Below, piece by piece: positions 12,965 through 46,362 of a stretch of 64,000 bases of DNA; within the stretch, counting starts at the first letter, position 1; the number at the start of each line of letters is the position of its first letter. The position numbers and the translations under genes are program-made. The notes beneath the pieces are model-generated. The model was given only the letters and a program-made list of their open reading frames with translations. It had not been told where the DNA came from and made no database searches. Location of the stretch: NCBI RefSeq assembly GCF_053078305.1, contig NZ_CP166879.1; one strand, given 5' to 3'.

Positions 12965-13263
12965 AATGGCTCACTCAAGCTTGCTCACGATTGATTCCAG
13001 TAACAAACCGTATTGTGTAATTATTTCTATAGCAGATCGCTATATAGGCTTGTATACATCGAATAATTTGAAAATCAAAGAGATAGGTAGATTTTCACTC
13101 GAAAGTAGTATTACGTGTAAGTGAGGAGTAATTATTGTTCGGTATCAAAGGGAGACAAAAAAAGCGCCCGCAGGAGGTTTAACGCTACTTACTCCCCTTG
13201 ATGATTTGCTTATTTTTCAATGAGTAAATCAAAACAAGGGGAGCAAATAAGCACAAGTTACAA

Positions 13264-14256
13264 CTAATCGATGGACAGTTTATGGACACTTTCAGCCAGC
13301 GGATTAAAGCTGATTGCATCCTGTAAAAAGTCCGGCGAAAAATGCGCATACGTCATCGTTTGTTGAATCGTGGCATGGCCCAGGATTCGTTGTAGCGTAA
13401 CGATATTTCCGCCATTCATCATGAAATGTGTAGCGAATGTATGACGCATGACATGGGTGGCCTGCCCTTTCGGTAAGTCCGGCTTCACCTCCTGAAGGAT
13501 CTCCCGAAATCTGAGGTAATCAGCCTGGTACAACAATCCGGTTCTGCGGGTTTTAATTAACGCAAGTACCGCATCAGAAACGGGAACGGCGCGAGATTTT
13601 CCGTTCTTGGTGTTAAAGAACATCACGCGGTTACCTACAATATGTTCCCCACGTAAACCAGCTGCTTCACCCCACCTTGCCCCCGTGGAAAGACACAGAA
13701 TGGCAACACGCCGCGCATCTCCATCGAGTCGTTCAAGCAGTCGTTCAATCTCCTCATCTGAAAGAAAGGCCATCTCTGTGTTCCTGACTTTCAGCTTACG
13801 TATTCCCCGAACCGGGTTTTCGTTATGGAACACCTCACCCTCAATCAGCGAGCTGAACATTGCAGACAAGGCACACAAATCGCGGTTAATGCTGGAAGGC
13901 ATTAACCCGGCCTGTAATTTGTCGGACCGGTACCCGAGCATAAATTTTCGCGTCATCTGACTGGCACGAGGATCACCCATCTCACGGTTTATCTTTTCCA
14001 GTCTGACCCTGTAGGTATCCCCGTAATCCTGGTTACGACCATCAAGCAACCACCAGGCCTCTATCAGTTCGGATAACCGACGCTGATCTGCTGGCTTAGC
14101 CTGCCATGGCTTATCATGAAAATTCTGCAAAACATACCTTTCAAACTCCTGCGCCTTTGACTTCAGGGTAAAAATCTTACGAATCCGCTTTCCTTCCGTC
14201 CCTTGTGGCCTTACATCAACCTTATAACGTCCGTCTTTGAGTTGCTTAATCGACAT
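13264..14256 (-). CDS. int: Phage integrase, tyrosine recombinase (P2 Int-like)
   Basis: N-terminus MSIKQLKDGRYKVDVRPQGTEGKRIRK closely resembles P2 Int; C-terminal catalytic region HVMRHTFATHFMMNGGNIVTLQRILGH...TMTYAH; track ORF begins at an upstream TTG. Confidence 0.9.
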   Translation of the reverse strand: MSIKQLKDGRYKVDVRPQGTEGKRIRKIFTLKSKAQEFERYVLQNFHDKPWQAKPADQRRLSELIEAWWLLDGRNQDYGDTYRVRLEKINREMGDPRASQMTRKFMLGYRSDKLQAGLMPSSINRDLCALSAMFSSLIEGEVFHNENPVRGIRKLKVRNTEMAFLSDEEIERLLERLDGDARRVAILCLSTGARWGEAAGLRGEHIVGNRVMFFNTKNGKSRAVPVSDAVLALIKTRRTGLLYQADYLRFREILQEVKPDLPKGQATHVMRHTFATHFMMNGGNIVTLQRILGHATIQQTMTYAHFSPDFLQDAISFNPLAESVHKLSID

Positions 14257-14325
14257 GATTAGCCCCTCCAACGGATAAATTAACCAAACACTCCCTGCGG
14301 GATGAAACCCGCTCGATGTGTAACG

Positions 14326-14673
14326 TCAGCCAGCATTGCGGCCTGATCGGGATGATTTTTGGGTAACGTCGATTGAAGCCAGATCGCCCTCCGACTGAGA
14401 AGATCCATCAAGAGAGAGAGCCGGGGCAATTTGACCCCCAGCTTCAAACGTTTCATCAGTTGTTAACCAAAGTGCATATTTTTTAAAACGTAAATTTTTT
14501 GTGATCTTTAATAAGATCTCACTTCCGATTCCATCTTGCCTTCCCGTTTCGTAATACCTCTGCGTATTAACAGGAATCCCTGTAAGCTCAAAGAATTGCT
14601 TCCTTGTAAGCCTCTCACTTTTCCGGATCATCAAGATTTTTTCACCGATACTTATTGACAGTGTCGAATTCAT
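14326..14673 (-). CDS. Immunity repressor (P2 C-like)
   Basis: From MNSTLSISIGEKILMIRKSERLTRKQFFELTGIPVNTQRYYETGRQ...GQIAPAL; matches P2 C repressor pattern (EKIVLMRKSE...YYESGR...SGQIAPAL) by recall; adjacent to int. Confidence 0.75.
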   Translation of the reverse strand: MNSTLSISIGEKILMIRKSERLTRKQFFELTGIPVNTQRYYETGRQDGIGSEILLKITKNLRFKKYALWLTTDETFEAGGQIAPALSLDGSSQSEGDLASIDVTQKSSRSGRNAG

Positions 14674-14774
14674 ACCACTAAAATCCTCGCAAAAGTGTCG
14701 TAATTTCGACATTAAACAAACCAAAACAAACCTTCATAAGGTGCAATAGGCGCACCTGTGCGAGAGGATAACAA
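14674..14774. promoter_or_regulatory. Divergent lysis/lysogeny switch region between C-like repressor and Cox-like gene
   Basis: Tandem 10-bp direct repeat (t/a)aaacaaacc x2 at 14713-14732 plus palindrome ggtgcaataggcgcacc at 14740-14756; P2-type repressors bind direct repeats. Confidence 0.5.
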
Positions 14775-15299
14775 ATGCGGGACTTCATTGCCGATAAAGA
14801 GTTATCTGACACCGATCACACAACTGGAGCGGCGTACATCAACGCCGATACCAGTCAACAAGAAGCAACAGATAACAACGACGAACAAAAGCCACAGCGC
14901 ACATATAAAAAAGGGGCAACCCTGCGGCTGGATGGCCCAATAGCCGGGCTTTGCTCACTTGAAAAAGGGGCCGCCTACATCGGATTAACAAAAACAGCAT
15001 TACGCGCAGCTCTCCAGCGTAACCAGATGCCAGGGCATAAAACCCGCTCAAACCCTGAAGATGAGAATTCGGATGGTGTTTGGTGGTTTAACGTCAGAGA
15101 GTGGGACAAGCTGGCCGACGAACTCCCGGAATGTGAGCCACCAGAATGGCACAACTGGAAAAGCTACTGGACATACGACCGCCAGAAAAGAAAGTTTACC
15201 CCGGCTGATAAGGAAGATTGCCAGACCGTCAATGGAAAACGGGTTTACAAAGGCAGAAAGTCAAAGCTGGAACAGAGCCAGGATGTAAACGAACGGTGA
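14775..15299 (+). CDS. Cox-like excisionase/transcriptional regulator with long N-terminal extension (start uncertain)
   Basis: Segment GAAYIGLTKTALRAALQRNQMPG...GVWWFNVREW resembles P2 Cox HTH region by recall; divergent from repressor; 174-aa ORF is longer than P2 Cox (91 aa). Confidence 0.5.
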   Translation: MRDFIADKELSDTDHTTGAAYINADTSQQEATDNNDEQKPQRTYKKGATLRLDGPIAGLCSLEKGAAYIGLTKTALRAALQRNQMPGHKTRSNPEDENSDGVWWFNVREWDKLADELPECEPPEWHNWKSYWTYDRQKRKFTPADKEDCQTVNGKRVYKGRKSKLEQSQDVNER

Positions 15300-15305
15300 T
15301 GAACG

Positions 15306-15701
15306 ATGAGCGGCAAAAATAAGTCAGAAAAAAACACAACCGTCCTTAAGCAGTTAAGCCTCCTGAAAGAGGAACACAAGGACGCCACGATACTGATGCA
15401 TCTGGAAGGCTCACCGAAAATAACAATCACAACAACCTATAGCGAGTTACACAAAGAGCTTGAAGGATTAATTAACTTTTGTTCAAAGCTAAAAGCGAAT
15501 GAAAACATTGATGACCTGATACTTAAACCAGAAGCAGAGTTCGGGCACTTTTGCGAAAGTAGAGAAAATGGATGCATCGGAATAATGCTATACGCAACCC
15601 GCGGAATAATGATTAATCTGCCCGTTGAGCAGGCTGTGGATATATTCGGAGAAATGGCACTTAATAAAACCACTATTTACAAAAGAAAAATGCCGGAGTA
15701 A
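15306..15701 (+). CDS. Hypothetical protein in AT-rich moron (131 aa)
   Basis: ATG overlapping stop of upstream gene; local GC ~40% versus ~55% in flanking phage genes; no recognisable motif. Confidence 0.45.
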   Translation: MSGKNKSEKNTTVLKQLSLLKEEHKDATILMHLEGSPKITITTTYSELHKELEGLINFCSKLKANENIDDLILKPEAEFGHFCESRENGCIGIMLYATRGIMINLPVEQAVDIFGEMALNKTTIYKRKMPE

Positions 15702-15714
15702 CCCGGCATGGTTA

Positions 15715-15909
15715 TTAGTATGTTGGTCCCTTAGAAAAGTTCCAGGAACTCTTGCGAGGGTATTTATGAAGTACTTTTTCGCGGACATCGTTAGCCAGAT
15801 CTCTGATTTGATCGTGCTTATCATCAGAAGACGGAGGAACTTCGGGGATTTTATCCACGATTTCAATTACTGATTTAAGCATTTTTATTAATTCATCGTC
15901 GTAAGACAT
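15715..15909 (-). CDS. Hypothetical small acidic protein in AT-rich moron (about 64 aa; start uncertain)
   Basis: Convergent with 15306..15701; track ORF 15715..15942; likely start MSYDDELIKMLKSVIEIVDK. Confidence 0.35.
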   Translation of the reverse strand: MSYDDELIKMLKSVIEIVDKIPEVPPSSDDKHDQIRDLANDVREKVLHKYPRKSSWNFSKGPTY

Positions 15910-16355: not shown

Positions 16356-16374
16356 TAAATAAAAGGATTCAGCC

Positions 16375-17569: not shown

Positions 17570-17595
17570 CCGGAACAGTAACGGAGGTTATCGCG

Positions 17596-18150: not shown

Positions 18151-18266
18151 GTGATCATCATGCACACACAAAAAAACCGCTTGCCATGCCGCAATCAGTC
18201 AGGTTACATTCCCACTGCACCTCATAAAACGGGTGCCGGGATTACCACCCCGCCGACTACACAAGC

Positions 18267-18290
18267 GCACAACCGCGCCAGCGGTTTTTT
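18267..18290 (+). terminator. Rho-independent terminator inside early region
   Basis: Hairpin accgcgccagcggt followed by TTTTTTT. Confidence 0.55.
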
Positions 18291-18470
18291 TGTGCGTACT
18301 GTATCGCCACGTCTTTTTCGCGTCAGAATTATGGCGGGGCGTACGGGGCCGACTTCGGTCGGGCCGGGGTCTTGTGTAGCCGGTTGTGGTAACCCTGTAC
18401 GTCTCGCCACCCTGAGATTACCGCCTCGGGTTGGTGAGTTTTCACAACTTACTACACAAGGGGCCACACC

Positions 18471-18698
18471 ATGGCAAACCGCAAACAACAGCGCGTCCGC
18501 GCTGAGCGTCTTCACATCCGCACCGAAATCAACCGCAGACTCTGGCGCGCATCACGCGTCGCGCAAATCATGTACATCAACATGCTGCATGAACACGCAC
18601 ACGCGCTGTCAGACCGTTACTGTGCCGCCGTCTTCAGCTACCTGGCGGATGACCTGGCAGAGCTGCAGGACCTTATCAACCAGCAACACCACCACTAA
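18471..18698 (+). CDS. Hypothetical small protein
   Basis: 75 aa; ATG with aagggg RBS; preferred over overlapping low-complexity ORF 18151..18780. Confidence 0.4.
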   Translation: MANRKQQRVRAERLHIRTEINRRLWRASRVAQIMYINMLHEHAHALSDRYCAAVFSYLADDLAELQDLINQQHHH

Positions 18699-21705: not shown

Positions 21706-22106
21706 CCCGCTTTTATTGCGCCATGCAGCGCCAGCGTTTTGACGAAATGATGCGCCAGCGCACGCCCTTACTGACCCTGAACAACATTGCCACGGGGCCA
21801 CAACCGGGCGATGAGCTGGAAATCACGGTCGTCAGTCCCGATCGCACCACCACGGCCATCATCACCGACATACTCAACGGACGACCGGACAGCACCAACC
21901 GCAGCTGGCTTGTCGCCGTTCGTCCGCGCCGTCCGCCCGGAGAGCCGGAGCCGCTCACGCCTGCCGGAAAAATCATGCGGCAGTACCACGAAGAGCAGGA
22001 ACACAAACACAACGCAGAACTGACCAGAACACTGGCATCGATTAACCGCAAAGCGGCAATTGCCCGCTATGTGCATTCAGCCGCAGGCAGACAATCACGC
22101 AGGTAA
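21702..22106 (+). CDS. Hypothetical protein, translationally coupled to replication gene
   Basis: 134 aa; ATGA overlap with gpA-like stop. Confidence 0.4.
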   Translation: MTRFYCAMQRQRFDEMMRQRTPLLTLNNIATGPQPGDELEITVVSPDRTTTAIITDILNGRPDSTNRSWLVAVRPRRPPGEPEPLTPAGKIMRQYHEEQEHKHNAELTRTLASINRKAAIARYVHSAAGRQSRR

Positions 22107-22115
22107 ACAAAGACC

Positions 22116-22325
22116 ATGAACATAACCAGAAACAGCCAACTAAAGGAGCGCACCATGAACAGCACCAGGAGGATCAGCGACAGAGAGCTTACGAAAATGA
22201 TTGAGTCGGCACAGCAGCTGCTTTCACGACAAAACCCGGTCGTGGAAGAAACATGGTGGGAGAATTTACTGGCAGCACTGACCGAACTCCGGGAACGCCG
22301 GAACAACGAAGGAGCCGCCAAATGA
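22116..22325 (+). CDS. Hypothetical small protein
   Basis: 69-aa ORF; start may be internal (MNSTRRISDREL). Confidence 0.3.
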   Translation: MNITRNSQLKERTMNSTRRISDRELTKMIESAQQLLSRQNPVVEETWWENLLAALTELRERRNNEGAAK

Positions 22326-22648
22326 AGACCCCAGGAATGACCGGAAAGGAAATCATTTTACGCTACCTGGAAACGCACACACGTTTCAGCGCCCCAGAAC
22401 TGGTAGAAAAACTGGGCGTGAAAAGAACCGTCATTAATCAGGCCGCCGGGAAAATGGTACGGGAAGGCCTGCTGGTTGTGGATGGATACACGGACAAGAT
22501 AACGCATTACCGGAAGCCAACGGAAAAGGAACGACAGGAACTGGCGCAACGGGCTGAACGGCAGCAGGAAAAATCAGTCATCGAAGCCTGCAAGCGCAGC
22601 GAAATCATGAAGCGAATTCTGTTTATCTACGGCGCTGCATTCCGTTAA
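22322..22648 (+). CDS. Putative winged-helix DNA-binding protein
   Basis: 108 aa from MKTPGMTGKEIILRYLETHTRFSAPELVEKLGVKRTVINQAAGKMVREGLLVV; ATGA overlap with preceding ORF. Confidence 0.4.
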   Translation: MKTPGMTGKEIILRYLETHTRFSAPELVEKLGVKRTVINQAAGKMVREGLLVVDGYTDKITHYRKPTEKERQELAQRAERQQEKSVIEACKRSEIMKRILFIYGAAFR

Positions 22649-22656
22649 AGGAGCTG

Positions 22657-22680
22657 GTGAGTCGGGGCAAAAATTCTTTT
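22657..22680. terminator. Bidirectional terminator between convergent genes
   Basis: Hairpin ggggcaaaaattctttttgcccc. Confidence 0.5.
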
Positions 22681-22713
22681 TGCCCCGGCGAAGCAGCAGA
22701 CAAGCGAAGCGCG

Positions 22714-22977
22714 TCAGGAACGCCGCGACAGTAGTTCAAGCGCATACCGGCGATCTTCCGGGCGCATGGCATCAACAAGAAACTTCACCATATTGCGACC
22801 GGAGCGGGCGCCGGGGCTGAGGGTATGGGAAAAGGTCATCGTACAGACGAAGGTGTGCCCGCATTCGACATCACTGCATGCACAGTACAGATCCGCAAGT
22901 TCAGGGGTTTTCCAGTCTGTCTTCCGGATGACAGCAGGTGCGCCACAGTCAGGACACCGGGCTTTAAAAATCCGCAT
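22714..22977 (-). CDS. Ogr/Delta-family zinc-finger late-gene transcription activator
   Basis: From MRIFKARCPDCGAPAV...YCACSDVECGHTF: CPxC...CxxxxxCxxTF pattern of P2 Ogr; GGGAGG RBS 7 nt upstream of ATG. Confidence 0.7.
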   Translation of the reverse strand: MRIFKARCPDCGAPAVIRKTDWKTPELADLYCACSDVECGHTFVCTMTFSHTLSPGARSGRNMVKFLVDAMRPEDRRYALELLSRRS

Positions 22978-23014
22978 CTTACCTCCCGATAACACGTATC
23001 CCGGGGAAGACATT

Positions 23015-24088
23015 TTACCCGACCGGCACCACTTTTTCTTCCGCCACATGCCCGGCTTCCACATCAAAACGAAGATAAAGGTGTTCCGGTATATCGGGAT
23101 CGCTGTTCACGGCGTTCATGATTTTACGCTGAAGCGGTATCACCTCATCCTTGCGGTACGTTTCACGCGTCGTTTCCGGGTTAGGGATGGTGGCCCCGTT
23201 CGTGGGGATGATCCCCGCAAGACCGGCAGGAAAGCGGTGTGCCGTAAACACATCCTGGGCGCTGATCCCCTTGATGTTTGAAAATTCATCCTTGGCGCTC
23301 ACCTCACCAATCGGAATAATTTTCACCCCATCCGGCGAACCTTTGGGGATGTTGATGTACAGATTGCGGAAATTTCCCAGCCCCTTAGACTCCGCCACCT
23401 TCTCGCGGATCTCATCCTCCATCTCCGTGGTGATCCCAGGGTCGTTCGTATACAGCAAAAAGCCCATATGCGCCCCGTTGTTGTAGTAACGGCGACGAAA
23501 AAGGCTGGCCTCGCTGTTCAGCAGCGCCGAGTGAATGCCACCGATATAATCCGGCAGCCCGTAAATTTGCTGACGCGGATCATACATCCGCAGAAAGATA
23601 ATATCTTCCGGCGTATAGACCAGCGCGGGACCTTCCTGAAGCACCACGAACTCACCGGTTTTGCGGCGCCGGAGATACAGCGACGGAAGCGGCTCAAGTG
23701 CCACGACGTCGCCGAATACGTTACGCACCTTGAGCAGGGCGAGATCGCCGAACAACAGGTAGTCAAATACCGCCTGTTCCATCTGGTCCGTTGTGAGGCC
23801 ACCACCGGTATAGCCCCCCGCCACCATGTTACGGCGGGCATACAGCACCCCACCGTGCTGGGCGTTAAGGTTCGGGAGCTGCGCCAGTGCCAGGCGGTTA
23901 ATCGGCAGCTGCCAGTGGTTGTGTTCGTTGTCATACCAGATGTTATGGTAGTCCGTGCCGGTGGTCAGCACCGGTTCCGGCTGACCAAACGTGATTGTGC
24001 TGCCACGTGCGGGCGTGAATGCTTTTTTCGTCACGCGTGACGTTTTGTTTCTGCGTTTCTTGCTCATGCGGCTTTCCCGAAGGCCCAT
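23015..24088 (-). CDS. Portal (capsid vertex) protein, P2 gpQ-like
   Basis: 357 aa; size and position upstream of terminase ATPase on same strand as in P2 Q-P; family assignment by recall. Confidence 0.6.
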   Translation of the reverse strand: MGLRESRMSKKRRNKTSRVTKKAFTPARGSTITFGQPEPVLTTGTDYHNIWYDNEHNHWQLPINRLALAQLPNLNAQHGGVLYARRNMVAGGYTGGGLTTDQMEQAVFDYLLFGDLALLKVRNVFGDVVALEPLPSLYLRRRKTGEFVVLQEGPALVYTPEDIIFLRMYDPRQQIYGLPDYIGGIHSALLNSEASLFRRRYYNNGAHMGFLLYTNDPGITTEMEDEIREKVAESKGLGNFRNLYINIPKGSPDGVKIIPIGEVSAKDEFSNIKGISAQDVFTAHRFPAGLAGIIPTNGATIPNPETTRETYRKDEVIPLQRKIMNAVNSDPDIPEHLYLRFDVEAGHVAEEKVVPVG

Positions 24089-25890
24089 GTGGACGGGCGT
24101 TCATAGTCATAATCTACAGGCTCATTAATCACGGCGTGCGAAATGGCAAAAAACACATCCGCATGCCCCGTAACATCCGACCGTTCCGCCACGAACGTCA
24201 GCGCGTTACCGCTTTTTGTGGTGGTGCGGCGTATGGACATGAACGACGCGGGGATCTCCGTGCGTTCACGGCTGGCCTCATCAATGGCGTCTTTCGCCCA
24301 CTCGATACGCTTATGGGCCACCACGTCTATCATTTTCATCACCAGGCGGTTTTTGCTCTCCACGCTGTAAAGAATGGCGTTAGCCTCACGTGGCGCAAAG
24401 CGACTGACGATATCAAACACCCCTTTCCCGATACCGGTGATATCTATGCCGATATAGGTAATGTTAAAGCGCTGCATCAGTTCGCGGATCTGATCGGCCT
24501 GCCAGGTGAAGTTAAATCCCTGCCACTGCCAGACGGCGAGTACACGGAACCGCTCGCCCTCATGGACAGGCGGAGCCACAATCACAAACGTGGAATTATC
24601 CCCGGACCTTGACGGGTCAAAGCCCGCCCATACCTCACGATTGCCGAACGGACGTGCCGCCGTGGGATCGTAGTCACCCCACGTCTCCATCTCCACCTCG
24701 CACCTGACCAGTTCGGAGAACTTAAATACCGCATCCTTGCTGTCAACAAACTCGCAGCCGTACAGCATCGCATAGGTGGTCGGGTTGTAGCGGTTCCTGA
24801 TACGTTCAATATCAACCCGTGCAGACAGGCCACCCGCCACCGCCTCTTCCAGCCGGATAATGTAGCGCCAGATCCCGTCAGGGCATTCACAGCCCACACG
24901 CATCGCGCTTTCTTTCGGAAACTCAACCGCACGACGCGCCGGGTCATCCCCGCGCCAGTCGTCACCATTCCAGACCAGATAAGCCTGGTGGGTTTTGGCG
25001 CTGGGTGTGGAAAAATACGTCGTGCGGTATTTGTCGTGGGTCGCCATTGCCGAGGCCACTTCATGCAGTCGCGTGAATTTTGGGATCCAGAACACCTCAT
25101 CGCCGTAAAGGTGGCCGTTAAATCCCTGGGCGGTGCTGACATTGGTGGACAGGAAGCGCAGCATTGCACCATTGCTCAGACGGATATGCTTACCCGTGAG
25201 CGTGATCCCAAACTGCAGGGCGAAGTTAATAATATATTCACGAAAGATTTCCGCCTGTACCCGTGACGCAGAAAAGAAAATCTGGTTATCACCGGTCACC
25301 ACCGCATCTTCGAACGCTTCCCATGCAAAATACCAGGTCATGCCGATCTGGCGGCTCTTGAGGATGAAACGGCGCTCACGGTGCCGGTTCTCGCGGCAGT
25401 GCAGCTGGTAGGCATAAAGATTTTTACGCGCCCATTCATCCAGCATTTCAGCAGTCAGTCCGGAAACGTCGTTTTTCCGGTAGCGCCGCTTTTTCCCTTC
25501 TCCCCCGCCGCAGGTCCCCGCAGCCGCGCCGTCCTCATACCCTGCCGGACGCAGGGCGGCAATTTCCGCCATCCTTTCAGCGTGTTTGTTTTTCTGGGCG
25601 ATGATCTTCACGTGCTGCGCGATAAGTTCACGCAGTTCGGCAAGTTCACACTCTGTCTTGCCCTCCCGTCCGGTCAGCACATCAATACGCCGGGCGATCA
25701 CGTCCTCAACGGATTCAGCGGGCAGCAGGGCGGCCCACTGCCCCACATCACACCAGTGGTAAACCGTGCGCGGCGGAATACCGAGTTCCGCCGCAATATC
25801 GCGGGGGTGCCACCGCTTCAGGTAAAGCGATCGCGCCGCCTCTTTGATTTCGTCAGAATATTTAGCCATGCGCCCATTATGGCGGCGCAT
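24064..25890 (-). CDS. Terminase large (ATPase) subunit, P2 gpP-like
   Basis: 608-aa ORF; N-terminal HTH-like segment (RDIAAELGIPPRTVYHWC); divergent from scaffold/capsid genes as in P2; true start may be MAKYSDEIK. Confidence 0.65.
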   Translation of the reverse strand: MRRHNGRMAKYSDEIKEAARSLYLKRWHPRDIAAELGIPPRTVYHWCDVGQWAALLPAESVEDVIARRIDVLTGREGKTECELAELRELIAQHVKIIAQKNKHAERMAEIAALRPAGYEDGAAAGTCGGGEGKKRRYRKNDVSGLTAEMLDEWARKNLYAYQLHCRENRHRERRFILKSRQIGMTWYFAWEAFEDAVVTGDNQIFFSASRVQAEIFREYIINFALQFGITLTGKHIRLSNGAMLRFLSTNVSTAQGFNGHLYGDEVFWIPKFTRLHEVASAMATHDKYRTTYFSTPSAKTHQAYLVWNGDDWRGDDPARRAVEFPKESAMRVGCECPDGIWRYIIRLEEAVAGGLSARVDIERIRNRYNPTTYAMLYGCEFVDSKDAVFKFSELVRCEVEMETWGDYDPTAARPFGNREVWAGFDPSRSGDNSTFVIVAPPVHEGERFRVLAVWQWQGFNFTWQADQIRELMQRFNITYIGIDITGIGKGVFDIVSRFAPREANAILYSVESKNRLVMKMIDVVAHKRIEWAKDAIDEASRERTEIPASFMSIRRTTTKSGNALTFVAERSDVTGHADVFFAISHAVINEPVDYDYERPSTWAFGKAA

Positions 25891-26035
25891 CCGGCCCGCA
25901 TTCAGGCAGAAAATTTCGGCTGTGTTCGGCTATCCCGCGTTATCCGAAGACAGCCGAATTCAGCCAGTAGCCCCCCGCTGTAAAAATCCCGACACTCACC
26001 GGAGTTCTTCAGATTTTCACGTAAAAGAGGCCACG

Positions 26036-27085
26036 ATGCCGCAGCCAACGTTGATGACCGACTGGATATGTATCGCCACATCAGGACCGACCGTTGACGG
26101 CCGCGAAATTGATCCGCAGTGGCTGACTGATGCCGCTGAAACCTATTCCCGCAACACCTACACGGCGATGCTGTGGCCCTGGCATGAGGAAGAAATCGGA
26201 CACCGCCAGTACACCAGTAATCTGGGTGAAGTGGACTCACTGAAAGCGGAAACCGGCGAGGACGGTAAAACCCGCCTCTACGCACGGCTGGTCCCTAACC
26301 AGTACCTGATTGAAGCCAACAGACTGGGGCAGAAGCTGTTCACATCCGCCGAGATAGTGGAGAACTTCGCCCGGAGCGGACGCGACTATCTCCTGGGCGT
26401 GGCGGTGACGGATATCCCCGCCAGTCTGGGGACGGAAAAAATCCGCTTCACCCTGAACAACGAGGAATACACGGCACAGCGGGCGAACTGCCAGACGTTC
26501 ACGCTGGGCAGCCTGTCACCGGACACCTCCCCGCCCCCCCGTAAACCTGAATCATTCCTGAAACGCCTGTTCAGCGCAGGACAGACCGACAACACCGACA
26601 CCAGTAAGCCTGATACAGGCGAGGACGCAAAAATGGACGAAATTAAAGCACTGCTTGAAAAGCTGATCACCCTGGTGGAAGGCGGCAGCGCCGCTGCCGC
26701 TGGCGAGGGCACAGCAGACACACCGGAAGAAGCAAAAGCCGAAGTCGCGGAAATCGCCGCCGAAATCGCCGATGCCGCCGCAGAGGTGGCAGAACTGGCA
26801 GAAGAAGTGGAAGCCGCCCCGGAAGATGAGGTTAAGGCTGAAGCCTTCAGCGCCGCGAAAGCGAAGCTGGAAGACGCGATTAAAGCGTTCAGTGCCATCA
26901 CACCGGAAAAAGGCGAACGTTACCGCCGCTTTGCCGCCCGTCGCCGGGACGACACCGACAAAGAAGAAATCAAAGCTATTGCCGAAAAACTTAACGACCT
27001 GACCACGAAGCTGTCAGCAACCGGCATCACGCCACGACCGGCTGGCACACCGGCAGAAAGCGAAAAACCGTTTGACTTTGTTTAA
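26036..27085 (+). CDS. Capsid scaffolding protein, P2 gpO-like
   Basis: From MPQPTLMTDW with aaagagg RBS; YLLGVAVTDIPASLGTE matches P2 gpO YLVGLAVTDDPASLGTE by recall; Ala/Glu-rich C-terminus; track ORF 25844..27085 is an upstream extension. Confidence 0.7.
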   Translation: MPQPTLMTDWICIATSGPTVDGREIDPQWLTDAAETYSRNTYTAMLWPWHEEEIGHRQYTSNLGEVDSLKAETGEDGKTRLYARLVPNQYLIEANRLGQKLFTSAEIVENFARSGRDYLLGVAVTDIPASLGTEKIRFTLNNEEYTAQRANCQTFTLGSLSPDTSPPPRKPESFLKRLFSAGQTDNTDTSKPDTGEDAKMDEIKALLEKLITLVEGGSAAAAGEGTADTPEEAKAEVAEIAAEIADAAAEVAELAEEVEAAPEDEVKAEAFSAAKAKLEDAIKAFSAITPEKGERYRRFAARRRDDTDKEEIKAIAEKLNDLTTKLSATGITPRPAGTPAESEKPFDFV

Positions 27086-27096
27086 GGACACGCAAC

Positions 27097-28125
27097 ATGC
27101 AACTGAACCAGAAAACCGAATCACTGCTTCGTAAGTACGCTGCCGGACTGGGCGCGGCAAACGGGGTTGACGACGTCACACGCTATTTTGCGCTGTCTGA
27201 CCCGAAGGAGACCGCGCTGCGTGACGCCATCATGCACTCCGACGAGTTTTTATCAAAACTGCCGAACGTGCTGGATGTTGAACAGGTGACAGGCCAGGTG
27301 GTTACCACCGGCGTTCCGGGCCTCCATACCGGACGTAAAAAAAATGCCCGTTTCACCCTTCCGCTGGGTGTTACCGGGAATGAATACAAGCTGGCTGAAA
27401 CCGATTCCGGTGCCCACCTCCTGTACACCACACTGGTCACCTGGGCAAACGCAGGCGGTGAAAACGAGTTCTTTAACCGCATTCAGAATTTTGTTAACAG
27501 ACAGATCGCGCTGGATATCCTGCGCATCGCCTTTAACGGTACCAGCGTGGCCGAAGATACCGACCCGGTAACCAACAAAAACGGCGAGGACGTCAACACC
27601 GGCTGGCATGCCATCGTCAAAGGCCGCAGCGCAAAACAGATCGTGGAGGCTGGCCCGACGCTGGGCAAGGGTGGCGACTTTATCGGGCTGGATGCAGCCG
27701 TGGCAGACCTCGTGCACACCCTCATTGATGAGTCGTATCGCGGTCATCCGGATCTGGTGGTACTGGTTGCGCCCGATCTTGTGGCACAGGACAAGGTGAC
27801 GCTGCTTAACGCCATCGACGCCCCCACGGAAAAAGTGGCCGCGCAGCTTATCGGTCGCCAGATCGCCGGGCTGACAGCATACACCCCGCCGTTCATGCCG
27901 GAAGGACGCCTGATTGTCACCACGCTGGCAAACCTTCACATCTACACGCAGCGCGGCACCCGTCAGCGCCGTGCGGAGTGGAACGACGATCGCAAGCGTT
28001 TTGAAAACAACTATCTGCGCATGGAAGGTTACGCCGTGGAGCACGACGAAATTTACGCGGCCTACGACAAGCTGACCATCAAGGGCGCAGAAGCGGCAGA
28101 AGAGCCCGCATCTGGCGGCGCATAA
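27097..28125 (+). CDS. Major capsid protein, P2 gpN-like
   Basis: 342 aa; GKGGDFIGLDAAVADL and HPDLVVLVAPDLVAQDK resemble P2 gpN segments by recall. Confidence 0.7.
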   Translation: MQLNQKTESLLRKYAAGLGAANGVDDVTRYFALSDPKETALRDAIMHSDEFLSKLPNVLDVEQVTGQVVTTGVPGLHTGRKKNARFTLPLGVTGNEYKLAETDSGAHLLYTTLVTWANAGGENEFFNRIQNFVNRQIALDILRIAFNGTSVAEDTDPVTNKNGEDVNTGWHAIVKGRSAKQIVEAGPTLGKGGDFIGLDAAVADLVHTLIDESYRGHPDLVVLVAPDLVAQDKVTLLNAIDAPTEKVAAQLIGRQIAGLTAYTPPFMPEGRLIVTTLANLHIYTQRGTRQRRAEWNDDRKRFENNYLRMEGYAVEHDEIYAAYDKLTIKGAEAAEEPASGGA

Positions 28126-28142
28126 GCACAGAGGGCGGCGCA

Positions 28143-28841: not shown

Positions 28842-28948
28842 ACGACTACCCGCAGGGCCGGGCGGGCGCGGGAGGAGGCATCAGTGACGGAAACTGTATG
28901 GCCGTGGAATCCCGGACAGCCCGCCTTTTTATTCATATGAGGCACGTC

Positions 28949-30599: not shown

Positions 30600-30610
30600 G
30601 GAGTCACACC

Positions 30611-31756
30611 GTGAGCTGGCCGAATGTAACCGTAAGCCATCAGAACCGTTTCAACGGTGCCACCCGTGAAGTGGAGCGCACGCTGCTTTTTGTGGGCTAT
30701 GGCAAAAAGAACACAGGTAACACCCTTTCCGTCTCCCCTGAGACCGACCTGGACGACGTGCTGGGACCGGATGAAAGCCTGCTTAAATCCACGCTTACCG
30801 CCGCAATCGCCAACGGTGGCCAGAACTGGTTTGCCTATGTTCACGTTCTGTCTGAACCCAAACCCCCGGCACCGGAGGGTGGCGACGCTAACGCCGCATG
30901 GGTGGACGCGGTGAAAAAAGCGCAGACCATTGCTTCTGCCGAGGGCGTGGTGATTGCCATTGACATCACGGCCAAAGATGCCGTTAACCGCGCCACCGAA
31001 ACCCGCGCCCTGCTTCAGTCCGCTTATGGCCGCTTTGTCTGGTTCATGCTGTGCGTGGCCGGACCGGGCAAGGATGAAGCATGGGCGGCATACGTCACCC
31101 GCATCAGTGCCATACAGGACGGCGTGGCAGCACCTGGCGTGATGGTGGTTCCCCGCTTATGGGGAAATGAGCCCGGCGTACTGGCGGGCCGTCTCTGTAA
31201 TCCTTCCGTCACCGTTGCGGACAGTCCGGCACGTGTGGCAACCGGTGCCCTGGTGGCGATGGGTAACGATGAGATCCCGCAGGACGGCAAGAAACAGCCC
31301 CTTGAGCTGGCCACGCTGCGCTCGCTGGAAGGCAAACGCTTCAGCGTGCCCATGTGGTATCACGATTTCGACGGGCTCTACTGGTCAGACGGACGCACCC
31401 TTGATGTGGAGGGGGGCGATTACCAGGTCATCGAAAACGTGCGCGTGGTGGATAAGGTCTCCCGCCGTGTACGTCTGCGCGCCATTGCCCGCCTTGCGGA
31501 TCGCGCACTCAACAGCACACCGGGCAGCATTGCCGCCAGCCAGACATATTTCAGCCGCACGCTGCGTGAAATGGCGCTCGCCACGGAGATTAACGGCGTA
31601 CCGTTCCCCGGCGAGGTTAAACCGCCACAGGACGGGGATATCACCATCGTCTGGACCAGCAGTACACACGTGCAGATTTACATTGTGGTACGCCCCTACG
31701 AGAGCGCAAAAGCCATTGGCGTAAGTATTGAACTCGACACAGCACTGGAGATCTGA
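30611..31756 (+). CDS. Putative tail sheath protein
   Basis: 381 aa, immediately before a ~150-aa tube-sized gene; assignment by size and order only. Confidence 0.35.
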   Translation: MSWPNVTVSHQNRFNGATREVERTLLFVGYGKKNTGNTLSVSPETDLDDVLGPDESLLKSTLTAAIANGGQNWFAYVHVLSEPKPPAPEGGDANAAWVDAVKKAQTIASAEGVVIAIDITAKDAVNRATETRALLQSAYGRFVWFMLCVAGPGKDEAWAAYVTRISAIQDGVAAPGVMVVPRLWGNEPGVLAGRLCNPSVTVADSPARVATGALVAMGNDEIPQDGKKQPLELATLRSLEGKRFSVPMWYHDFDGLYWSDGRTLDVEGGDYQVIENVRVVDKVSRRVRLRAIARLADRALNSTPGSIAASQTYFSRTLREMALATEINGVPFPGEVKPPQDGDITIVWTSSTHVQIYIVVRPYESAKAIGVSIELDTALEI

Positions 31757-31757
31757 C

Positions 31758-32219
31758 ATGGCCGGAAATGAACGTATCAGCGGCGGCGCGTTTGATATCA
31801 ACTACGACGGGATCATGATCCACGTGGAAAGCGCCACCGTCACCATCACCGACAACAGCGCCGTGGCACAGACGCGCGGCGTGCCGAACGGCTACACCCG
31901 TGGTTCTGTTTCTGCCGATGTGGAGGTGGAAGTCGACGCGCAGAACTTTAAAAAGTTTGGTGCCGTGGCCCGCTCTGCGGGGTCGTGGCGTGCCATTCCT
32001 GAAAAGGATTTTCTCTTTTATGCCAACAACGGCAGCGAGGAGGAAAAAATCGAGGTGTTCGGCTGCGTCCCCATGTTGTCGGACGTGGTGAACATCAGCG
32101 CAGGTGAAGCCGGAAAGACCACGAAAAAAATCAAGTTCATGGTCACAAGCCCGGACTTTATCAGCATTGACGGCGTGCCCTACCTGTCAGCCCGTGACAC
32201 CCGCGATCTGAAGGGGTGA
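31758..32219 (+). CDS. Putative tail tube protein
   Basis: 153 aa from MAGNERISGGAFD; position after sheath candidate. Confidence 0.35.
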   Translation: MAGNERISGGAFDINYDGIMIHVESATVTITDNSAVAQTRGVPNGYTRGSVSADVEVEVDAQNFKKFGAVARSAGSWRAIPEKDFLFYANNGSEEEKIEVFGCVPMLSDVVNISAGEAGKTTKKIKFMVTSPDFISIDGVPYLSARDTRDLKG

Positions 32220-32223
32220 TGCC

Positions 32224-42209: not shown

Positions 42210-42723
42210 TGGTGAGGGTATTTTCATGCAGAACATGGTGATTTCGCCCTCGATGCAGTTCCAGGAAAAGGACCAGTCCGGTCAGACATCGAGCACCGCG
42301 AACGCCGAGCAGGGCATCAAGGCCAAAGAGCTTCGCGTAACCGGGATGATCACCTTTGACAATGAGCGGGCCCTTCAGCGCATTTTCCAGCTGGCCTCTG
42401 CCACCACCGGGGACGGTGCCCTGAAAGTTTACCGTATCGCAAACGCCACCGCTGCCGCCATTAACTTTCGTGAAGGGACATTTTCCGGGCAGATAGACGC
42501 ACAGCAGCAGACCGACCGCCTCGCCTGGCAGGTCAGCTTCACATTACGCGAAAGACGAAGCGTACCGGAAAAACGCCAGGCACGCGCCGCACCCGGCAGC
42601 AGCCGTAAACAGACGCCGCAGACGCCCGGCGCAAAAGGCGGGACCGTGGCCGACGAAACACCGGAGAAAATGACCTGGTTCGAAGAAAAGGTCCTCAAAC
42701 CCGTCAATGATGCGCTGGAGTAA
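42181..42723 (+). CDS. Hypothetical tail-region protein (start uncertain)
   Basis: 180-aa ORF overlapping upstream gene; alternative start MQNMVISPS. Confidence 0.3.
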   Translation: MSQTALLALDGEGIFMQNMVISPSMQFQEKDQSGQTSSTANAEQGIKAKELRVTGMITFDNERALQRIFQLASATTGDGALKVYRIANATAAAINFREGTFSGQIDAQQQTDRLAWQVSFTLRERRSVPEKRQARAAPGSSRKQTPQTPGAKGGTVADETPEKMTWFEEKVLKPVNDALE

Positions 42724-42725
42724 CC

Positions 42726-44399
42726 ATGAACCCCACTAAACGTCTGTTACTGGGTAACGACACCATTCAGCTGGTCAGCTGTTCCGTCATGCTTGAGCTG
42801 AACGCGTGCGGACGCGGATTTATCACGGCCAGAACGGAGCAGAACTACACCGGGCGCCCTGTTCGTCTCGATATCGGATACGGAAACGACCTGGTGCGCT
42901 GGTTTACCGGATACGTTGAACGCAGCCAGCCCGCTGAAAACGGCTCGGTGCGGCTTCTGATTCGTGAAATGGCGGGGATCCTTGATCACCCCTTCCCCTG
43001 TTCATTTCAGCACCCGACAATGCGCACGGTCACACAGTGGCTGAGTGAGACCAGCGGGCTGGAAATCATCCTGCCGGACAACGCGGCTTACACTGACAGA
43101 CCCGTTCCGCATTTCACGCACAGCGGCACGGGCTACGAACTGCTGGCCAGTCTGGGGCGTATTTTCTCCGTACCGGACTACATCTGGCATCCGTTACCGG
43201 ACGGCGGCATTATGGCCGCTGCCGCCGCGCAGGGGATGTTTTCCGGTCGCCCCGTCACCATCCCGCACGAGTTCAGCCAGGCATCAACGGGCGGACACAG
43301 TATGACCCTCCCGATGATTCAGACGCTGCGACCGGGTGTGGAGGTGAACGGTCAGCGCCTGACGATGGTCATGCTGGAAGATGACAACATGACCATCACG
43401 TGGACACCACGCAATAAAGCCACCGGCGCCCCCCTCCAGAAGTCCCCTTTCCGTCGCCAGGCTGAAAAGGCCTTCCCTGAACTGGCATCAGGGCTTCACC
43501 TGCCCAAACTGGCACGTGTTGAGGCGCCGACCGAAGCCGTCAGCGCGGGCAATATTGCCGACCCGTTCAGACCCCGCTACGCGGTGAATCTCCAGCTGCT
43601 TGACGAGAACGGCAACCCGGCAGCGGATACGCCCGTTTATAACGCCGTTCCCCTCCCCGTTCCTATGGCGGGCAGTGAGTCCGGCATGTTCCAGTTCCCG
43701 CCCCCCGGAACCCTGGTGGAAGTGGGATTTGTGGAAGGCCGGGCGGATAAGCCCTTCATCCGCCAGATAATGGCAGAGGGCCACAATCTGCCCGACGTGA
43801 AGCCGGGCGAGCAGTTGCAGCAACAGCGCGACGGCGTATCGCAGCGCGTGACGGTCGCCGGAGACTGGGAGCGCCAGACAGACCAGCGGATACAGGAGAC
43901 ATCACGCGAGCGCGTGGTGAGCGCAGACGAGGAGACGCGGAGCCTGACCAGCCGGGAGACCACCATACAGGCAACCGACACAACCACCGTCCTGGGCGTA
44001 TCCACGCTTCAGGCTGGCGCAGTCACCCATATCACTGAAGAGAACTACAGCATCAGCACGGGCGGGCACATGATGGTGGTTGCCGGTACCTGTGAGCGCG
44101 ACGTGGAAGGCGACACACTGGACACCGTGGGCGGCAGCCTTACCGAAAAGATTAAGGGCGTCCGTCACAGTATTGCGCAGGCGCAGAAGCTGGTTGGCGA
44201 TACGGTGAAGCTGGGAAACGAGGGCATTAATGTACTGACCATGCTGACGGACCTTGCCGATGTGGTGGAAGAGCTGGCCGATATTACGGCATCACATACC
44301 CACCCCAAAACGGGCACGTCTCCGCAGGCCGCACAGTTCAGCCAGGTCGCTCAGGAGTGCCGCCAGCTTAAAAATAAATATTCACCAATAATCGAATAA
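42726..44399 (+). CDS. Putative baseplate hub / central spike protein
   Basis: 557 aa; C-terminal region with histidine motif ITASHTHP resembling iron-binding spike tips (P2 gpV-type); last gene before non-coding right arm. Confidence 0.35.
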   Translation: MNPTKRLLLGNDTIQLVSCSVMLELNACGRGFITARTEQNYTGRPVRLDIGYGNDLVRWFTGYVERSQPAENGSVRLLIREMAGILDHPFPCSFQHPTMRTVTQWLSETSGLEIILPDNAAYTDRPVPHFTHSGTGYELLASLGRIFSVPDYIWHPLPDGGIMAAAAAQGMFSGRPVTIPHEFSQASTGGHSMTLPMIQTLRPGVEVNGQRLTMVMLEDDNMTITWTPRNKATGAPLQKSPFRRQAEKAFPELASGLHLPKLARVEAPTEAVSAGNIADPFRPRYAVNLQLLDENGNPAADTPVYNAVPLPVPMAGSESGMFQFPPPGTLVEVGFVEGRADKPFIRQIMAEGHNLPDVKPGEQLQQQRDGVSQRVTVAGDWERQTDQRIQETSRERVVSADEETRSLTSRETTIQATDTTTVLGVSTLQAGAVTHITEENYSISTGGHMMVVAGTCERDVEGDTLDTVGGSLTEKIKGVRHSIAQAQKLVGDTVKLGNEGINVLTMLTDLADVVEELADITASHTHPKTGTSPQAAQFSQVAQECRQLKNKYSPIIE

Positions 44400-44411
44400 T
44401 TATTCACTTTA

Positions 44412-44440
44412 ACAGGCCGCGCAATGTGGCCTTTTTTATT
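44412..44440 (+). terminator. Rho-independent terminator after last tail gene
   Basis: Hairpin ggccgcgcaatgtggcc followed by TTTTTT. Confidence 0.55.
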
Positions 44441-44459
44441 CCCGGACAATAAAAAATAT

Positions 44460-45100
44460 TCATCACCGGACATCACCCACCACGAAAAAACCGTCCGCAG
44501 CAGAAAAAAAGATGGACGAAACGCCCCACGTAATCCCCACGTAAAACGTCGCGTAACGCCACGTAACGAAGAGATAACCCCGCCAGCCCGATTCGATCCC
44601 CTGACATCAGAAAACGATTTCTGCGCCCCAAAATCGCCGCAAATGGCCGGAAATTTTCGGGGGCGACGTAACGCGTAAAGTGACGTAATCGGCGCTACCC
44701 CGCACACGCCTCCGGTATTTGTGTACGATAAATTTTGCAAATCGAAAGGGGTGCAAAACACCCCTCCAGGGCGCGCCATTACTGAGTTTTTCCCTTCTGA
44801 ATGGTTTTGCACTTTGTGCAAGGTTTTGCAAAAGTGTGCAAAAACTCCGGCTTTCTGAGGATCCCGAAAAATTTTAATGCACTGAATAACAAGAGATTTT
44901 TAAAATTACGTCACGATCGAAGATCTGAAAAAGGATCCGACGACGAAAACGAAAAAATCAGGAAAGCCAGAACTGGCGCGGTCTGGCGGGGAGTGGCAGC
45001 AAAAATCACTTTTGCACACTTTTGCACAACTGCTCCGAAAAAGGATGGCGAAGGGGAAGGAAAACAGCCACGTCATCCGTTGCACGTAACGGACGTAAAA
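44460..45100. repeat. Non-coding iteron array (ACGTAA-type and TTTTGCAC/GTGCAAAA-type short repeats)
   Basis: At least 10 copies of (c/g)acgtaa(c) at 44528-44690 and 45070-45100; direct/inverted ttttgca(c/a) copies at 44735-44850 and 45010-45030; no credible ORF. Confidence 0.6.
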
Positions 45101-45105
45101 GGTAA

Positions 45106-45463
45106 ATTACGCGCGGGTGCCTTTCGGCTGACGGCTGGAAGGAATACCTGAAGGCCGGATGTGAAAAGGCCCCGAGTCAACTAACGTTAACCCGAGGCCC
45201 TGACACTTCCTACCTGACAAGTGGAAGGTTAGCGCCTCCCTGTAAAAGGAGTCAAGCGCTATGCCGCAAAAAACGATCATAGTGAGCATTTTATGCATAA
45301 CTATTTTGATGATTGTCTGGATGATACACACGTCACCGTGTGAGTTCAGGCTTAACATCATGTGGTCACAATTTGCGGCGTTCTTGCAGTGTAAACAGTA
45401 AGAAACCGCAGCGGGGGTGAAAGCCCCCGCTATCCGGTTGCCGGGTTCGGTCGATATGGCACC
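45106..45463 (+). repeat. Copy 1 of ~360-bp duplicated module carrying a small hydrophobic-peptide gene (type I toxin-like locus)
   Basis: Near-identical to 45826..46186 (about 90% by eye); starts attacgcgcgggtgcctttcgg, ends at GC hairpin gcgggggtgaaagcccccgc. Confidence 0.7.
45261..45401 (+). CDS. 46-aa hydrophobic peptide, Hok/Gef-like candidate type I toxin (copy 1)
   Basis: MPQKTIIVSILCITILMIVWMIHTSPCEFRLNIMWSQFAAFLQCKQ; AGGAG RBS 8 nt upstream; single TM then Cys-containing tail, as in Hok family; highly structured leader. Confidence 0.45.
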   Translation: MPQKTIIVSILCITILMIVWMIHTSPCEFRLNIMWSQFAAFLQCKQ

Positions 45464-45516
45464 TTTTCTCCATTGGATTACAGACGTATTTGCCCGCGAC
45501 ATGCGGGCCTTTTTGT

Positions 45517-45720
45517 TCAGTTGTATTTATTGTGGTCGTTACTGGCAGTGGCATTAACTGATTTTGCATGAATAGCACAAATTTTTTCCACGATAACACC
45601 ACACGCTTCAAGGTCTTCCGGGCGTGAAACCTTTATTTTTGTAATAGTCTCAGGATTATCAGCCGTTCCACTTTGCACAACCTCAATTTCAATTTTTTTT
45701 CTTGAAAGAATCATTTTCAT
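45517..45720 (-). CDS. Hypothetical small protein (67 aa) between the two duplicated modules
   Basis: ATG-initiated ORF in AT-rich spacer; weak SD. Confidence 0.25.
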   Translation of the reverse strand: MKMILSRKKIEIEVVQSGTADNPETITKIKVSRPEDLEACGVIVEKICAIHAKSVNATASNDHNKYN

Positions 45721-45825
45721 CGCCCCGACACAGGACAGAGTAAGCCTGTGCGAAAGAATATCACCAGTGCGATAGCGTTGTCTGCTTCAACGCCAGGCAT
45801 TGCGCACACAAAGGGAAATCAGTAC

Positions 45826-46186
45826 ATTACACGCGGGTGCCTTTCGGCTGATGGCTGGAAGGATTACCTGAAGGCCGGATGTGGAAAGGCCCCGAGTCAA
45901 CTTTAATGTTAACCCGAGGCCCTGACCATCTACCCTAAGCAAGTGGAAGGTTAGCGCCTCCCTGTAAAAGGAGTCAAGCGCTATGCCGCAAAAAACGATC
46001 ATCGTGAGCATTTTATGCTTAACCATGTTGTTGACCGTCTGGATGATACACCGTTCTCCGTGTGAGTTCAGGCTTAACATCATGTGGTCAGAATTTGCGG
46101 CGTTCTTGCAGTGTAAACCGTAAGAAACCGCAGCGGGGGTGAAAGCCCCCGCTATCCGGTTGCCAAAGGTTCGGTCGAAAGTCGCA
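45826..46186 (+). repeat. Copy 2 of ~360-bp duplicated module (type I toxin-like locus)
   Basis: Direct repeat of 45106..45463 with scattered substitutions. Confidence 0.7.
45983..46123 (+). CDS. 46-aa hydrophobic peptide, Hok/Gef-like candidate type I toxin (copy 2)
   Basis: MPQKTIIVSILCLTMLLTVWMIHRSPCEFRLNIMWSEFAAFLQCKP; same RBS and frame as copy 1; differences are mostly conservative. Confidence 0.45.
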   Translation: MPQKTIIVSILCLTMLLTVWMIHRSPCEFRLNIMWSEFAAFLQCKP

Positions 46187-46206
46187 CCCTCACACAAAAG
46201 TCACAA

Positions 46207-46238
46207 AGAAAAACAAAGCCCGCAGCGTAAAAACTGCG
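46207..46238. terminator. Bidirectional rho-independent terminator (serS end / right-arm transcripts)
   Basis: Perfect hairpin aagcccgcag-cgtaaaaa-ctgcgggctt flanked by A-run and T-run. Confidence 0.65.
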
Positions 46239-46362
46239 GGCTTTTTTGTTTCAAAGATGGACGTTATCTGGACACATGAAAATAAAAAATCTTTATTTTC
46301 AATATGTTAACCACCCACTAAAACCACCCGCAGGCGCTTTTTAGATTCAGAAAAATTAGGTA

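Follow-up and report, generated by a model that had tools for sequence, protein, structure and literature searches.

Does an unfamiliar order of tail and lysis genes in a P2-family prophage mark a rearranged genome, or does it belong to a layout that is already known? The question is raised by a 64,000-nucleotide stretch of an Escherichia coli chromosome (contig NZ_CP166879.1 of NCBI RefSeq assembly GCF_053078305.1; hereafter the window, whose coordinates are used unless another genome is named), which carries a P2-family (Peduoviridae) prophage of about 33.2 kb at positions 13175-46334. A first-pass annotation had read the element as a distinct lineage or recombinant within the P2-like group, in which P2-like early and head modules were combined with a rearranged tail and lysis order. 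Our analysis points to a different answer: the element is very probably a temperate myovirus prophage that looks intact and belongs to the HP1 group of the Peduoviridae, with the canonical layout of that group, a P2-type integrase in the serS terminator and an early region that has undergone exchange with P88-like phages. Distinctness from P2 and a modular division into early and late parts therefore stand, whereas the notion of an unusual recombinant does not, the layout being that of the known HP1 group.

The gene map was built from the list of open reading frames (ORFs), the Prokaryotic Genome Annotation Pipeline (PGAP) annotation of an E. coli prophage 97-98% identical to this one, Pfam and PHROGs. 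It gives the order int and C (both on the minus strand), cox ... A; ogr, Q and P (all on the minus strand); O, N, M, L, gpR-like, gpS-like, sheath and tube; then holin, methyltransferase, endolysin, spanin, chaperone, tape measure, DUF2590 gene, J, I, fibre, fibre assembly and three hub genes. The map bears out the order noticed at first pass, with the lysis genes after the tube gene, a J-I-H-G block after the tape measure and ogr beside Q; PHROGs also name a baseplate wedge protein. The tail and lysis genes are as follows.

29419-29892, plus strand: gpR-like tail terminator, directly after L (Pfam P2_Phage_GpR; PHROGs)
29889-30599, plus strand: gpS-like tail completion protein (Pfam Phage_tail_S; PHROGs)
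30611-31756, plus strand: HP1-type tail sheath (DUF2586; PHROG tail sheath, 1e-146)
31728-32219, plus strand: HP1-type tail tube (Phage_HP1_Orf24; 85% amino acid identity to SI7)
32224-32529, plus strand: holin (PHROGs)
32519-33271, plus strand: DNA methyltransferase of 250 amino acids, between holin and M15 endolysin (PHROG 67, 3e-70)
33271-33609, plus strand: M15 endolysin (PHROGs)
33606-33992, plus strand: Rz-like spanin (PHROGs)
34092-34367, plus strand: tail assembly chaperone (PGAP "tail assembly chaperone"; second part, to 34555, PGAP DUF6890)
34557-36743, plus strand: tape measure (PHROG tape measure; 49% amino acid identity to SI7, 30% to HP1)
36740-37090, plus strand: DUF2590 protein in the W position (Pfam)
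37068-38252, plus strand: Baseplate_J protein (Pfam)
38245-38793, plus strand: Tail_P2_I protein (Pfam)
38816-40876, plus strand: H-like tail fibre (PHROGs)
40876-41472, plus strand: G-like fibre assembly protein (PHROGs)
41484-44399, plus strand: three baseplate/hub genes, homologues of HP1 orf33, orf34 and orf35 (Pfam HP1_ORF34; PHROG baseplate protein, 1e-242)

Every protein of the window was compared by tblastn with P2, P88, HP1 and Salmonella phage SI7 (Irrigatiovirus SI7; also SW3 and SW5), and SI7 is the closest phage. With the exception of the methyltransferase, the late genes, ogr through the final hub gene, are collinear with their best matches in SI7, at 47-85% amino acid identity, and most of them are so in HP1 as well (26-59%). 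The late order is identical in the deposited annotations of Haemophilus phage HP1 (Hpunavirus, the prototype of the HP1-like group), SI7 (Irrigatiovirus), Yersinia phage YenM324 (Tresduoquattuorvirus) and Cronobacter phage ESSI-2 (Seongnamvirus), all of which run from L through tail terminator, completion protein, sheath, tube, holin, endolysin, spanin, chaperone, tape measure, DUF2590, J, I-like protein, fibre and fibre assembly to three baseplate genes. P2 and P88 have a different, P2-type gene order. What had been taken for a rearranged tail and lysis order thus matches HP1, SI7, YenM324 and ESSI-2 gene for gene, its tail families are HP1-type, and the arrangement has been described before (PMC2771037, PMC10612066); the exact order is that of well-described genera, the outcome that the first-pass annotation had itself named as speaking against its reading.

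The families of the tail proteins lead to the same conclusion. By Pfam, the window has DUF2586, Phage_HP1_Orf24, DUF2590 and HP1_ORF34 where P2 has Phage_sheath_1, Phage_tube, GPW_gp25, Phage_GPD and Phage_P2_GpU, and the only tail families common to both are gpR, gpS, Baseplate_J and Tail_P2_I. The sheath, tube, DUF2590, J, I and hub proteins had no tblastn match in P2 or P88. Together with the HP1-named families, this indicates that the tail module is an HP1-type paralogue and not a set of relocated P2 genes. The block that had been called W-J-I-H-G was correctly placed, but its "W" gene encodes a DUF2590 protein and not a member of the GPW_gp25 family, and P2-type U, D and V genes are absent from the prophage. 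Sheath and tube share 48-52% amino acid identity with HP1, the DUF2590, Baseplate_J and Tail_P2_I proteins share 49-59% with the products of HP1 orf28-30, and the hub proteins share 26-43% with their HP1 homologues; in the fibre and fibre assembly proteins, C-terminal patches match P2 H and G. Sheath homologues occur in 76 phage records, and all of the matches listed are HP1-group phages (HP1/HP2, F108, K139, Aeromonas, Vibrio and Pseudoalteromonas phages, ESSI-2 and SI7).

P2-related phages were divided into "P2-like" and "HP1-like" genera by Lavigne et al. in 2009 (PMC2771037), the HP1-like genus having its capsid genes ordered as in P2, tail genes without relation to those of P2 and a cos site that adjoins attP (PMC2771037). 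The HP1 group includes Hpunavirus, Irrigatiovirus and Seongnamvirus, and the P2 group includes Peduovirus and Xuanwuvirus (PMC10612066, Table 2); the same 2023 study argues that both tail modules are ancient paralogues (PMC10612066). Our own statements about HP1 rest on its GenBank annotation and PMC2771037.

In its head block the prophage conforms to the P2 family as a whole, with the portal and large terminase genes divergent from those for scaffold, capsid, small terminase and head completion.

23015-24088, minus strand: portal, Q (Pfam Phage_portal; amino acid identity 78% to SI7, 52% to HP1, 33% to P2)
24064-25869, minus strand: terminase large subunit (TerL), P (Pfam Terminase_6N, Terminase_6C and Terminase_5; amino acid identity 76% to SI7, 47% to HP1, 41% to P2)
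26036-27085, plus strand: O, scaffold (Pfam Phage_GPO)
27097-28125, plus strand: N, capsid (Pfam Phage_cap_P2; 68% amino acid identity to SI7)
28143-28841, plus strand: M, small terminase (Pfam Phage_term_smal)
28898-29422, plus strand: L, head completion (PHROG head-tail adaptor Ad1)

TerL, whose homologues are found across the family in 490 phage records, is nearest to SI7 (76% identity), followed by YenM324 (58%), ESSI-2 (55-57%), Vibrio and Aeromonas phages (48-50%), HP1 (47%), P2 (41%) and P88 (36%). The O, N, M and L proteins are 52-68% identical to those of SI7.

Genera are delimited by the ICTV at about 70% nucleotide similarity across the whole genome. By a VIRIDIC-like calculation, the intergenomic similarity of the prophage to SI7 is 39.3%, confined to 22.7-44.4 kb, which leaves it short of the threshold for Irrigatiovirus; in a megablast comparison of a 24-kb query (window 13000-37000) with SI7, 12% of the query was covered at 71% identity. 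Similarity to P88 is 8.4%, confined to the early region and hok, and the late order of P88 is P2-type, so the prophage does not belong to Xuanwuvirus. Nor does it belong to Peduovirus, from which it differs in gene order and tail families and with which the similarity falls to 2.8% (P2); the value for HP1 is about 4%. HP1-type tail proteins and the late gene order place it in the HP1 group, where it probably represents an unnamed genus-level lineage nearest Irrigatiovirus.

The four reference phages differ from the prophage in different parts of the genome. SI7 has an identical late order from ogr/Q to the last hub gene (TerL 76%, capsid 68%, tube 85%) and a conserved noncoding region after the hub gene that includes the candidate cos, but its early region is distinct (int 50% and A 34% amino acid identity) and contains three methyltransferases, and it lacks the hok loci and the methyltransferase of the lysis cassette. 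HP1 shares int, repressor, cox and rep, Q/P divergent from O-N-M-L, R/S-like genes, sheath, tube, hol/lys, chaperone, tape measure and orf28-35, as well as an Ogr-like ORF beside Q and the dyad between P and O described below; it has a CI-type repressor where the prophage has a C-type one, its lysis proteins are not detectably alike, and its host belongs to another family. With P2 the prophage has in common int-C-cox-A, Q-P/O-N-M-L, the gpR, gpS, J and I families, an Ogr-type activator and a cos-like motif. P2, however, has its lysis genes between L/X and R, its V-W-J-I-H-G block ahead of FI-FII-E-T-U-D, ogr beside att and cos beside Q, and different sheath, tube, W and hub families. P88 and its relatives (Xuanwuvirus; e.g., 569R5) share the dmsA/serS attachment site, patches of the early region, the terminator at the junction of the early and late modules and hok at the right end. 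They differ in having P2-type tail proteins and the late order of P2, in which L-X-lysis-R-S-V-W-J-I-H-G is followed by FI-FII-E-T-U-D. The best Ogr-like match in P88 is not beside Q but follows a D-like tail gene close to the right end.

The borders of the prophage were taken from comparison with the empty site of K-12, where dmsA and serS are separated by about 240 bp. The window has dmsA at 10520-12964 and serS at 46363-47655, both on the minus strand, with the prophage between them in the serS terminator, and the K-12 intergenic segment aligns in two parts, 12923-13180 and 46320-46483, that overlap by 21 bp. The extent first given, 13000-46250, was therefore approximately right, the true insert being 13175-46334. 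An exact 8-mer is common to both ends.

13167-13174, no strand: attL core CCCGCAGG, left junction in the serS terminator
46327-46334, no strand: attR core CCCGCAGG, right junction adjoining serS

The G+C content is about 0.50 in the flanks and 0.55-0.61 in the 18-44 kb region. An Rfam match to the STnc130 small RNA (122 bits, full length) at 13055-13189 covers the attL core (13167-13174), so that integration swaps out the last bases both of that RNA and of the serS terminator hairpin; the attR side bears a phage-derived partial substitute, ACCACCCGCAGGCGCTTTTT. Far outside the prophage, a single CRISPR-DR4 repeat (61416-61443, minus strand) adjoins tRNA-Ser(GGA) (61225-61312) and is probably an orphan CRISPR remnant. 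E. coli strain Z1323MEC0001, whose genome was sequenced independently, has a near-identical element (97-98%) at the same site, and at least 80% of the late region is present in 11 of 5426 complete E. coli genomes. We found no description of this prophage in the literature on Irrigatiovirus or HP1-like E. coli prophages.

Outside the late region the affinities of the prophage change. The features of the integration and early region, and the hok/sok loci of the right end, are as follows.

13264-14271, minus strand: tyrosine integrase, int (Pfam Int_N and Phage_integrase; 54% amino acid identity to P2 Int)
14326-14724, minus strand: C-type helix-turn-helix repressor (amino acid identity 41% to P2 C, 37% to the SI7 regulator; PGAP homologue "helix-turn-helix domain-containing")
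14775-15299, plus strand: Cox-like excisionase/regulator (Pfam Phage_Cox, 27.4 bits; PGAP "Cox family DNA-binding protein")
18217-18698, plus strand: isrK and C4 antisense RNA (Rfam; isrK 18217-18291, C4 18327-18414), then an ORF of 75 amino acids
19177-21705, plus strand: gpA-type replication endonuclease (Pfam Phage_GPA, 2e-106; amino acid identity 53% to P88, 33-34% to P2 and SI7)
22646-22719, no strand: bidirectional terminator of 74 bp at the junction of the early and late modules (92-93% identical to P88-like phages)
45102-45442 and 45822-46164, plus strand: two tandem hok/sok-type loci (PGAP Hok/Gef family proteins)

A Pfam scan of the repressor (14326-14724) gave no match. Between dmsA and position 14436, across int, the left arm runs contiguously at about 95% nucleotide identity with vB_EcoM-569R5, a P88-like prophage of P2-type order at the same site. 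Farther in, cox, a DUF4761 gene, the segment 18159-18761 and the gpA gene are 68-84% identical to P88-like phages, and this similarity stops at the terminator at 22646-22719, which follows the stop codon of ogr here and that of the portal gene in P88-like phages. At the other end, a P88-like prophage of strain SCU-106 matches the right arm (45786-46334) at 98% identity. The two hok/sok copies lie between the cos-like region and attR with a spacing of about 720 bp and are 94-96% identical across the repeat families found; P88 has one hok locus, at its right end, and the SCU-106 prophage, at the same site, has two. The integration and early module thus appears to be shared with P2-group coliphages and the late module to be of the HP1 group. 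We lean, by a modest measure, toward a cross-subgroup hybrid, in which an SI7-like structural, lysis and packaging module would have been joined, at 22646-22719 and at the hok/attP/int arm, to a P88-like module for integration, immunity and replication. Modular exchange of nonstructural genes has been reported (PMC10612066).

Within the early module, the isrK/C4 segment is 83-84% identical in nucleotide sequence to P88-like phages, and the counterpart stretch of P88 (4978-5575) contains a gene annotated as "derepression protein" (5282-5512), the match being at the level of the stretch and not ORF to ORF. The P1 immI region is a system of antirepressor-based control. By analogy, isrK/C4 and the 75-amino-acid ORF look like a P1 immI-like module and are candidates for an antirepressor system in a prophage with a C-type repressor. 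Between the gpA gene and the terminator lies a cargo slot (22093-22650) that varies among carriers; here it holds small ORFs, including one for a MarR/winged helix-turn-helix-like protein (22253-22648), and in the Z1323MEC0001 element the slot (10985-12151 of the compared segment) has a YafO-family toxin gene in their place.

Could the genome instead be of P2 (Peduovirus-like) type, with tail and lysis genes reshuffled by recombination into a novel order? P2-family affinity is plain in its head genes and in int, C, A and ogr, and the Pfam families of R, S, J and I are also those of P2, but no fewer than five genera, from Pasteurellaceae to Enterobacterales, have the same order, which was already in the literature (PMC2771037, PMC10612066), and the sheath, tube, W-position and hub proteins belong to other families and have no BLAST match in P2. 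We consider this reading scarcely tenable. A different proposal, that the region is a nonfunctional scar in which the remnant of a P88-like prophage (int, early genes and hok) was fused by deletion to an SI7-like prophage at one attachment site, would accommodate the use of the dmsA/serS site by P88-like phages with an int region about 95% identical, the two tandem hok loci and the patchy similarity to P88-like phages. Yet the element has a single integrase and a single pair of att cores, with no att-like core between or around the hok copies, and its 33.2 kb, typical of a P2-family phage, hold a single full complement of genes for head, tail, lysis, replication and switch, among which no truncated gene was seen. 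A scar is also hard to reconcile with the near-identical element at the same site in a second genome and the 11 complete E. coli genomes with at least 80% of the late region, and the occurrence of two hok loci in a P88-like prophage makes the duplication something other than a fusion scar specific to this element. We therefore regard a deletion scar as improbable. A tandem double lysogen was rejected on the grounds of the single int and the lack of an att core between or around the hok copies.

Several observations weigh against assignment to the HP1 group as an intact phage. At only about 39% similarity to SI7, the prophage lies outside every named genus compared. The holin, endolysin and spanin matched SI7 and had no match detectable by tblastn in HP1, and the Phage_Cox score of the Cox-like protein is just below the cutoff of 27.5 bits. 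Moreover, intactness here refers to gene completeness and not to induction or virions, and the frameshift site, late promoter element and cos site discussed below are predictions from sequence. All expected phage genes are nevertheless present as full-length ORFs; the tail fibre gene, full length here, is a pseudogene in Z1323MEC0001.

The organization of late control also appears to be that of the HP1 group. The ogr-like gene directly adjoins the portal gene Q, and a nested palindrome lies in the divergent region between P and O.

22714-22977, minus strand: Ogr/Delta-like zinc-finger late activator of 87 amino acids (Pfam Ogr_Delta, 1.3e-15; 51% amino acid identity to the SI7 regulator in the same position)
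25915-25958, no strand: nested palindrome in the divergent P/O (terminase/scaffold) region, TTCGGCTGTG-TTCGGCTATCC-CGCG-TTATCCGAA-GACAGCCGAA

Next to the portal gene, the records of SI7, YenM324 and ESSI-2 list a transcriptional regulator, and the HP1 counterpart, detected by tblastn, is an unannotated ORF. This ORF (HP1 10447-10632, minus strand) lies directly downstream of Q and matches the Ogr-like protein of the window at 27% over 62 amino acids (E=1e-7); the HP1 RefSeq record thus appears to leave an Ogr/Delta-like gene beside Q unannotated. HP1 has the core dyad of the palindrome, TTCGGCTATCCCGCGTTATCCGAA (25925-25948), at the equivalent position (13700-13723), and SI7 and YenM324 have related, alignable sequence. 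The palindrome is the only long conserved noncoding element of the late region, and could be an uncharacterised operator for the Ogr homologues of the HP1 group, unlike the TGT-N12-ACA site of P2. Matches to TGT-N12-ACA number 10 in the window against 15 expected by chance, with none in the P/O or any other intergenic late region. A scan of 22000-41900 for sigma-70 promoters and terminators gave counts at or under the shuffle expectation and was uninformative. To our knowledge, late regulation has been studied far less in the HP1 group than in P2.

Two details of the tail and lysis block deserve mention. No counterpart of the methyltransferase (32519-33271) was found by tblastn in SI7, HP1, P2 or P88; the gap between holin and endolysin contains no gene in SI7, HP1 and YenM324, and none is annotated there in ESSI-2. 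The gene is presumably a late-expressed, moron-like insertion that splits the lysis cassette. The chaperone gene ends in A_AAA_AAC at 34358 and the -1 frame is open from 34355 to 34555, making this heptamer a candidate -1 frameshift site that would be the analogue of P2 E/E+E'.

The first-pass annotation had also suggested that cos may be organized differently from that of P2, and this is probably correct, although the position is one already known for the HP1 group: near attP and not beside Q.

44692-44710, minus strand: candidate cos cohesive-end sequence GGCGTGTGCGGGGTAGCGC, in the noncoding stretch after the last hub gene

The ESSI-2 record has a 15-nucleotide terminal duplication (GCGGGTGCGGTGTAG), and the candidate can be aligned with the physical end of that record as well as with sequence conserved in SI7 and YenM324. 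It is similar to P2 cos (GGCGAGGCGGGGAAAGCAC), and GACGTAA/GACGGAA repeats like those next to HP1 cos flank it. No cos-like sequence was found beside ogr/Q. A P2-style cos at that place was considered and rejected, the 74 bp at 22646-22719 consisting of the bidirectional terminator and a stop codon, with no convincing likeness to the P2 cos junction. The 700-bp noncoding stretch after the last tail gene is rich in short repeats, a CACGTAA/GACGTAA set and a TTTTGCA(C/A)A set (44470-44710 and 44740-45060), of which the latter is also present in SI7; they are possible binding sites for terminase (cosB-like) or for Int, Cox or IHF. ORFs 44424-44678 and 44801-45151 had no phage homologues by tblastn against P2, P88, HP1 and SI7, the second also lacking a Pfam match, and both are probably spurious.

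From these elements a life cycle can be proposed. The C-type repressor, whose gene points away from cox and the early operon, would maintain lysogeny, and the isrK/C4 pair and the "derepression protein" of P88 suggest that induction may be antirepressor based, as in P1 immI. gpA would then start rolling-circle replication, and the Ogr-like zinc-finger protein would turn on late transcription, which may begin in the divergent P/O region. There are few intergenic gaps downstream, making it plausible that L, R, S, sheath, tube, lysis, chaperone, tape measure, baseplate, fibre and hub genes form a single long rightward late operon. DNA would be packaged from a cos site that lies past the last tail gene and ahead of attP.

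The region should accordingly be labelled an HP1-group Peduoviridae prophage and not a rearranged P2, a correction that has little significance beyond bookkeeping. Of minor value are the prediction of cos at the sequence level and the candidate late-control palindrome, and likewise the exchange of int, attP and early modules between HP1-group and P2-group coliphages at a shared serS/dmsA site. If the proposed hybrid origin is true, it would show two deep branches of the Peduoviridae swapping whole nonstructural modules within one host species.

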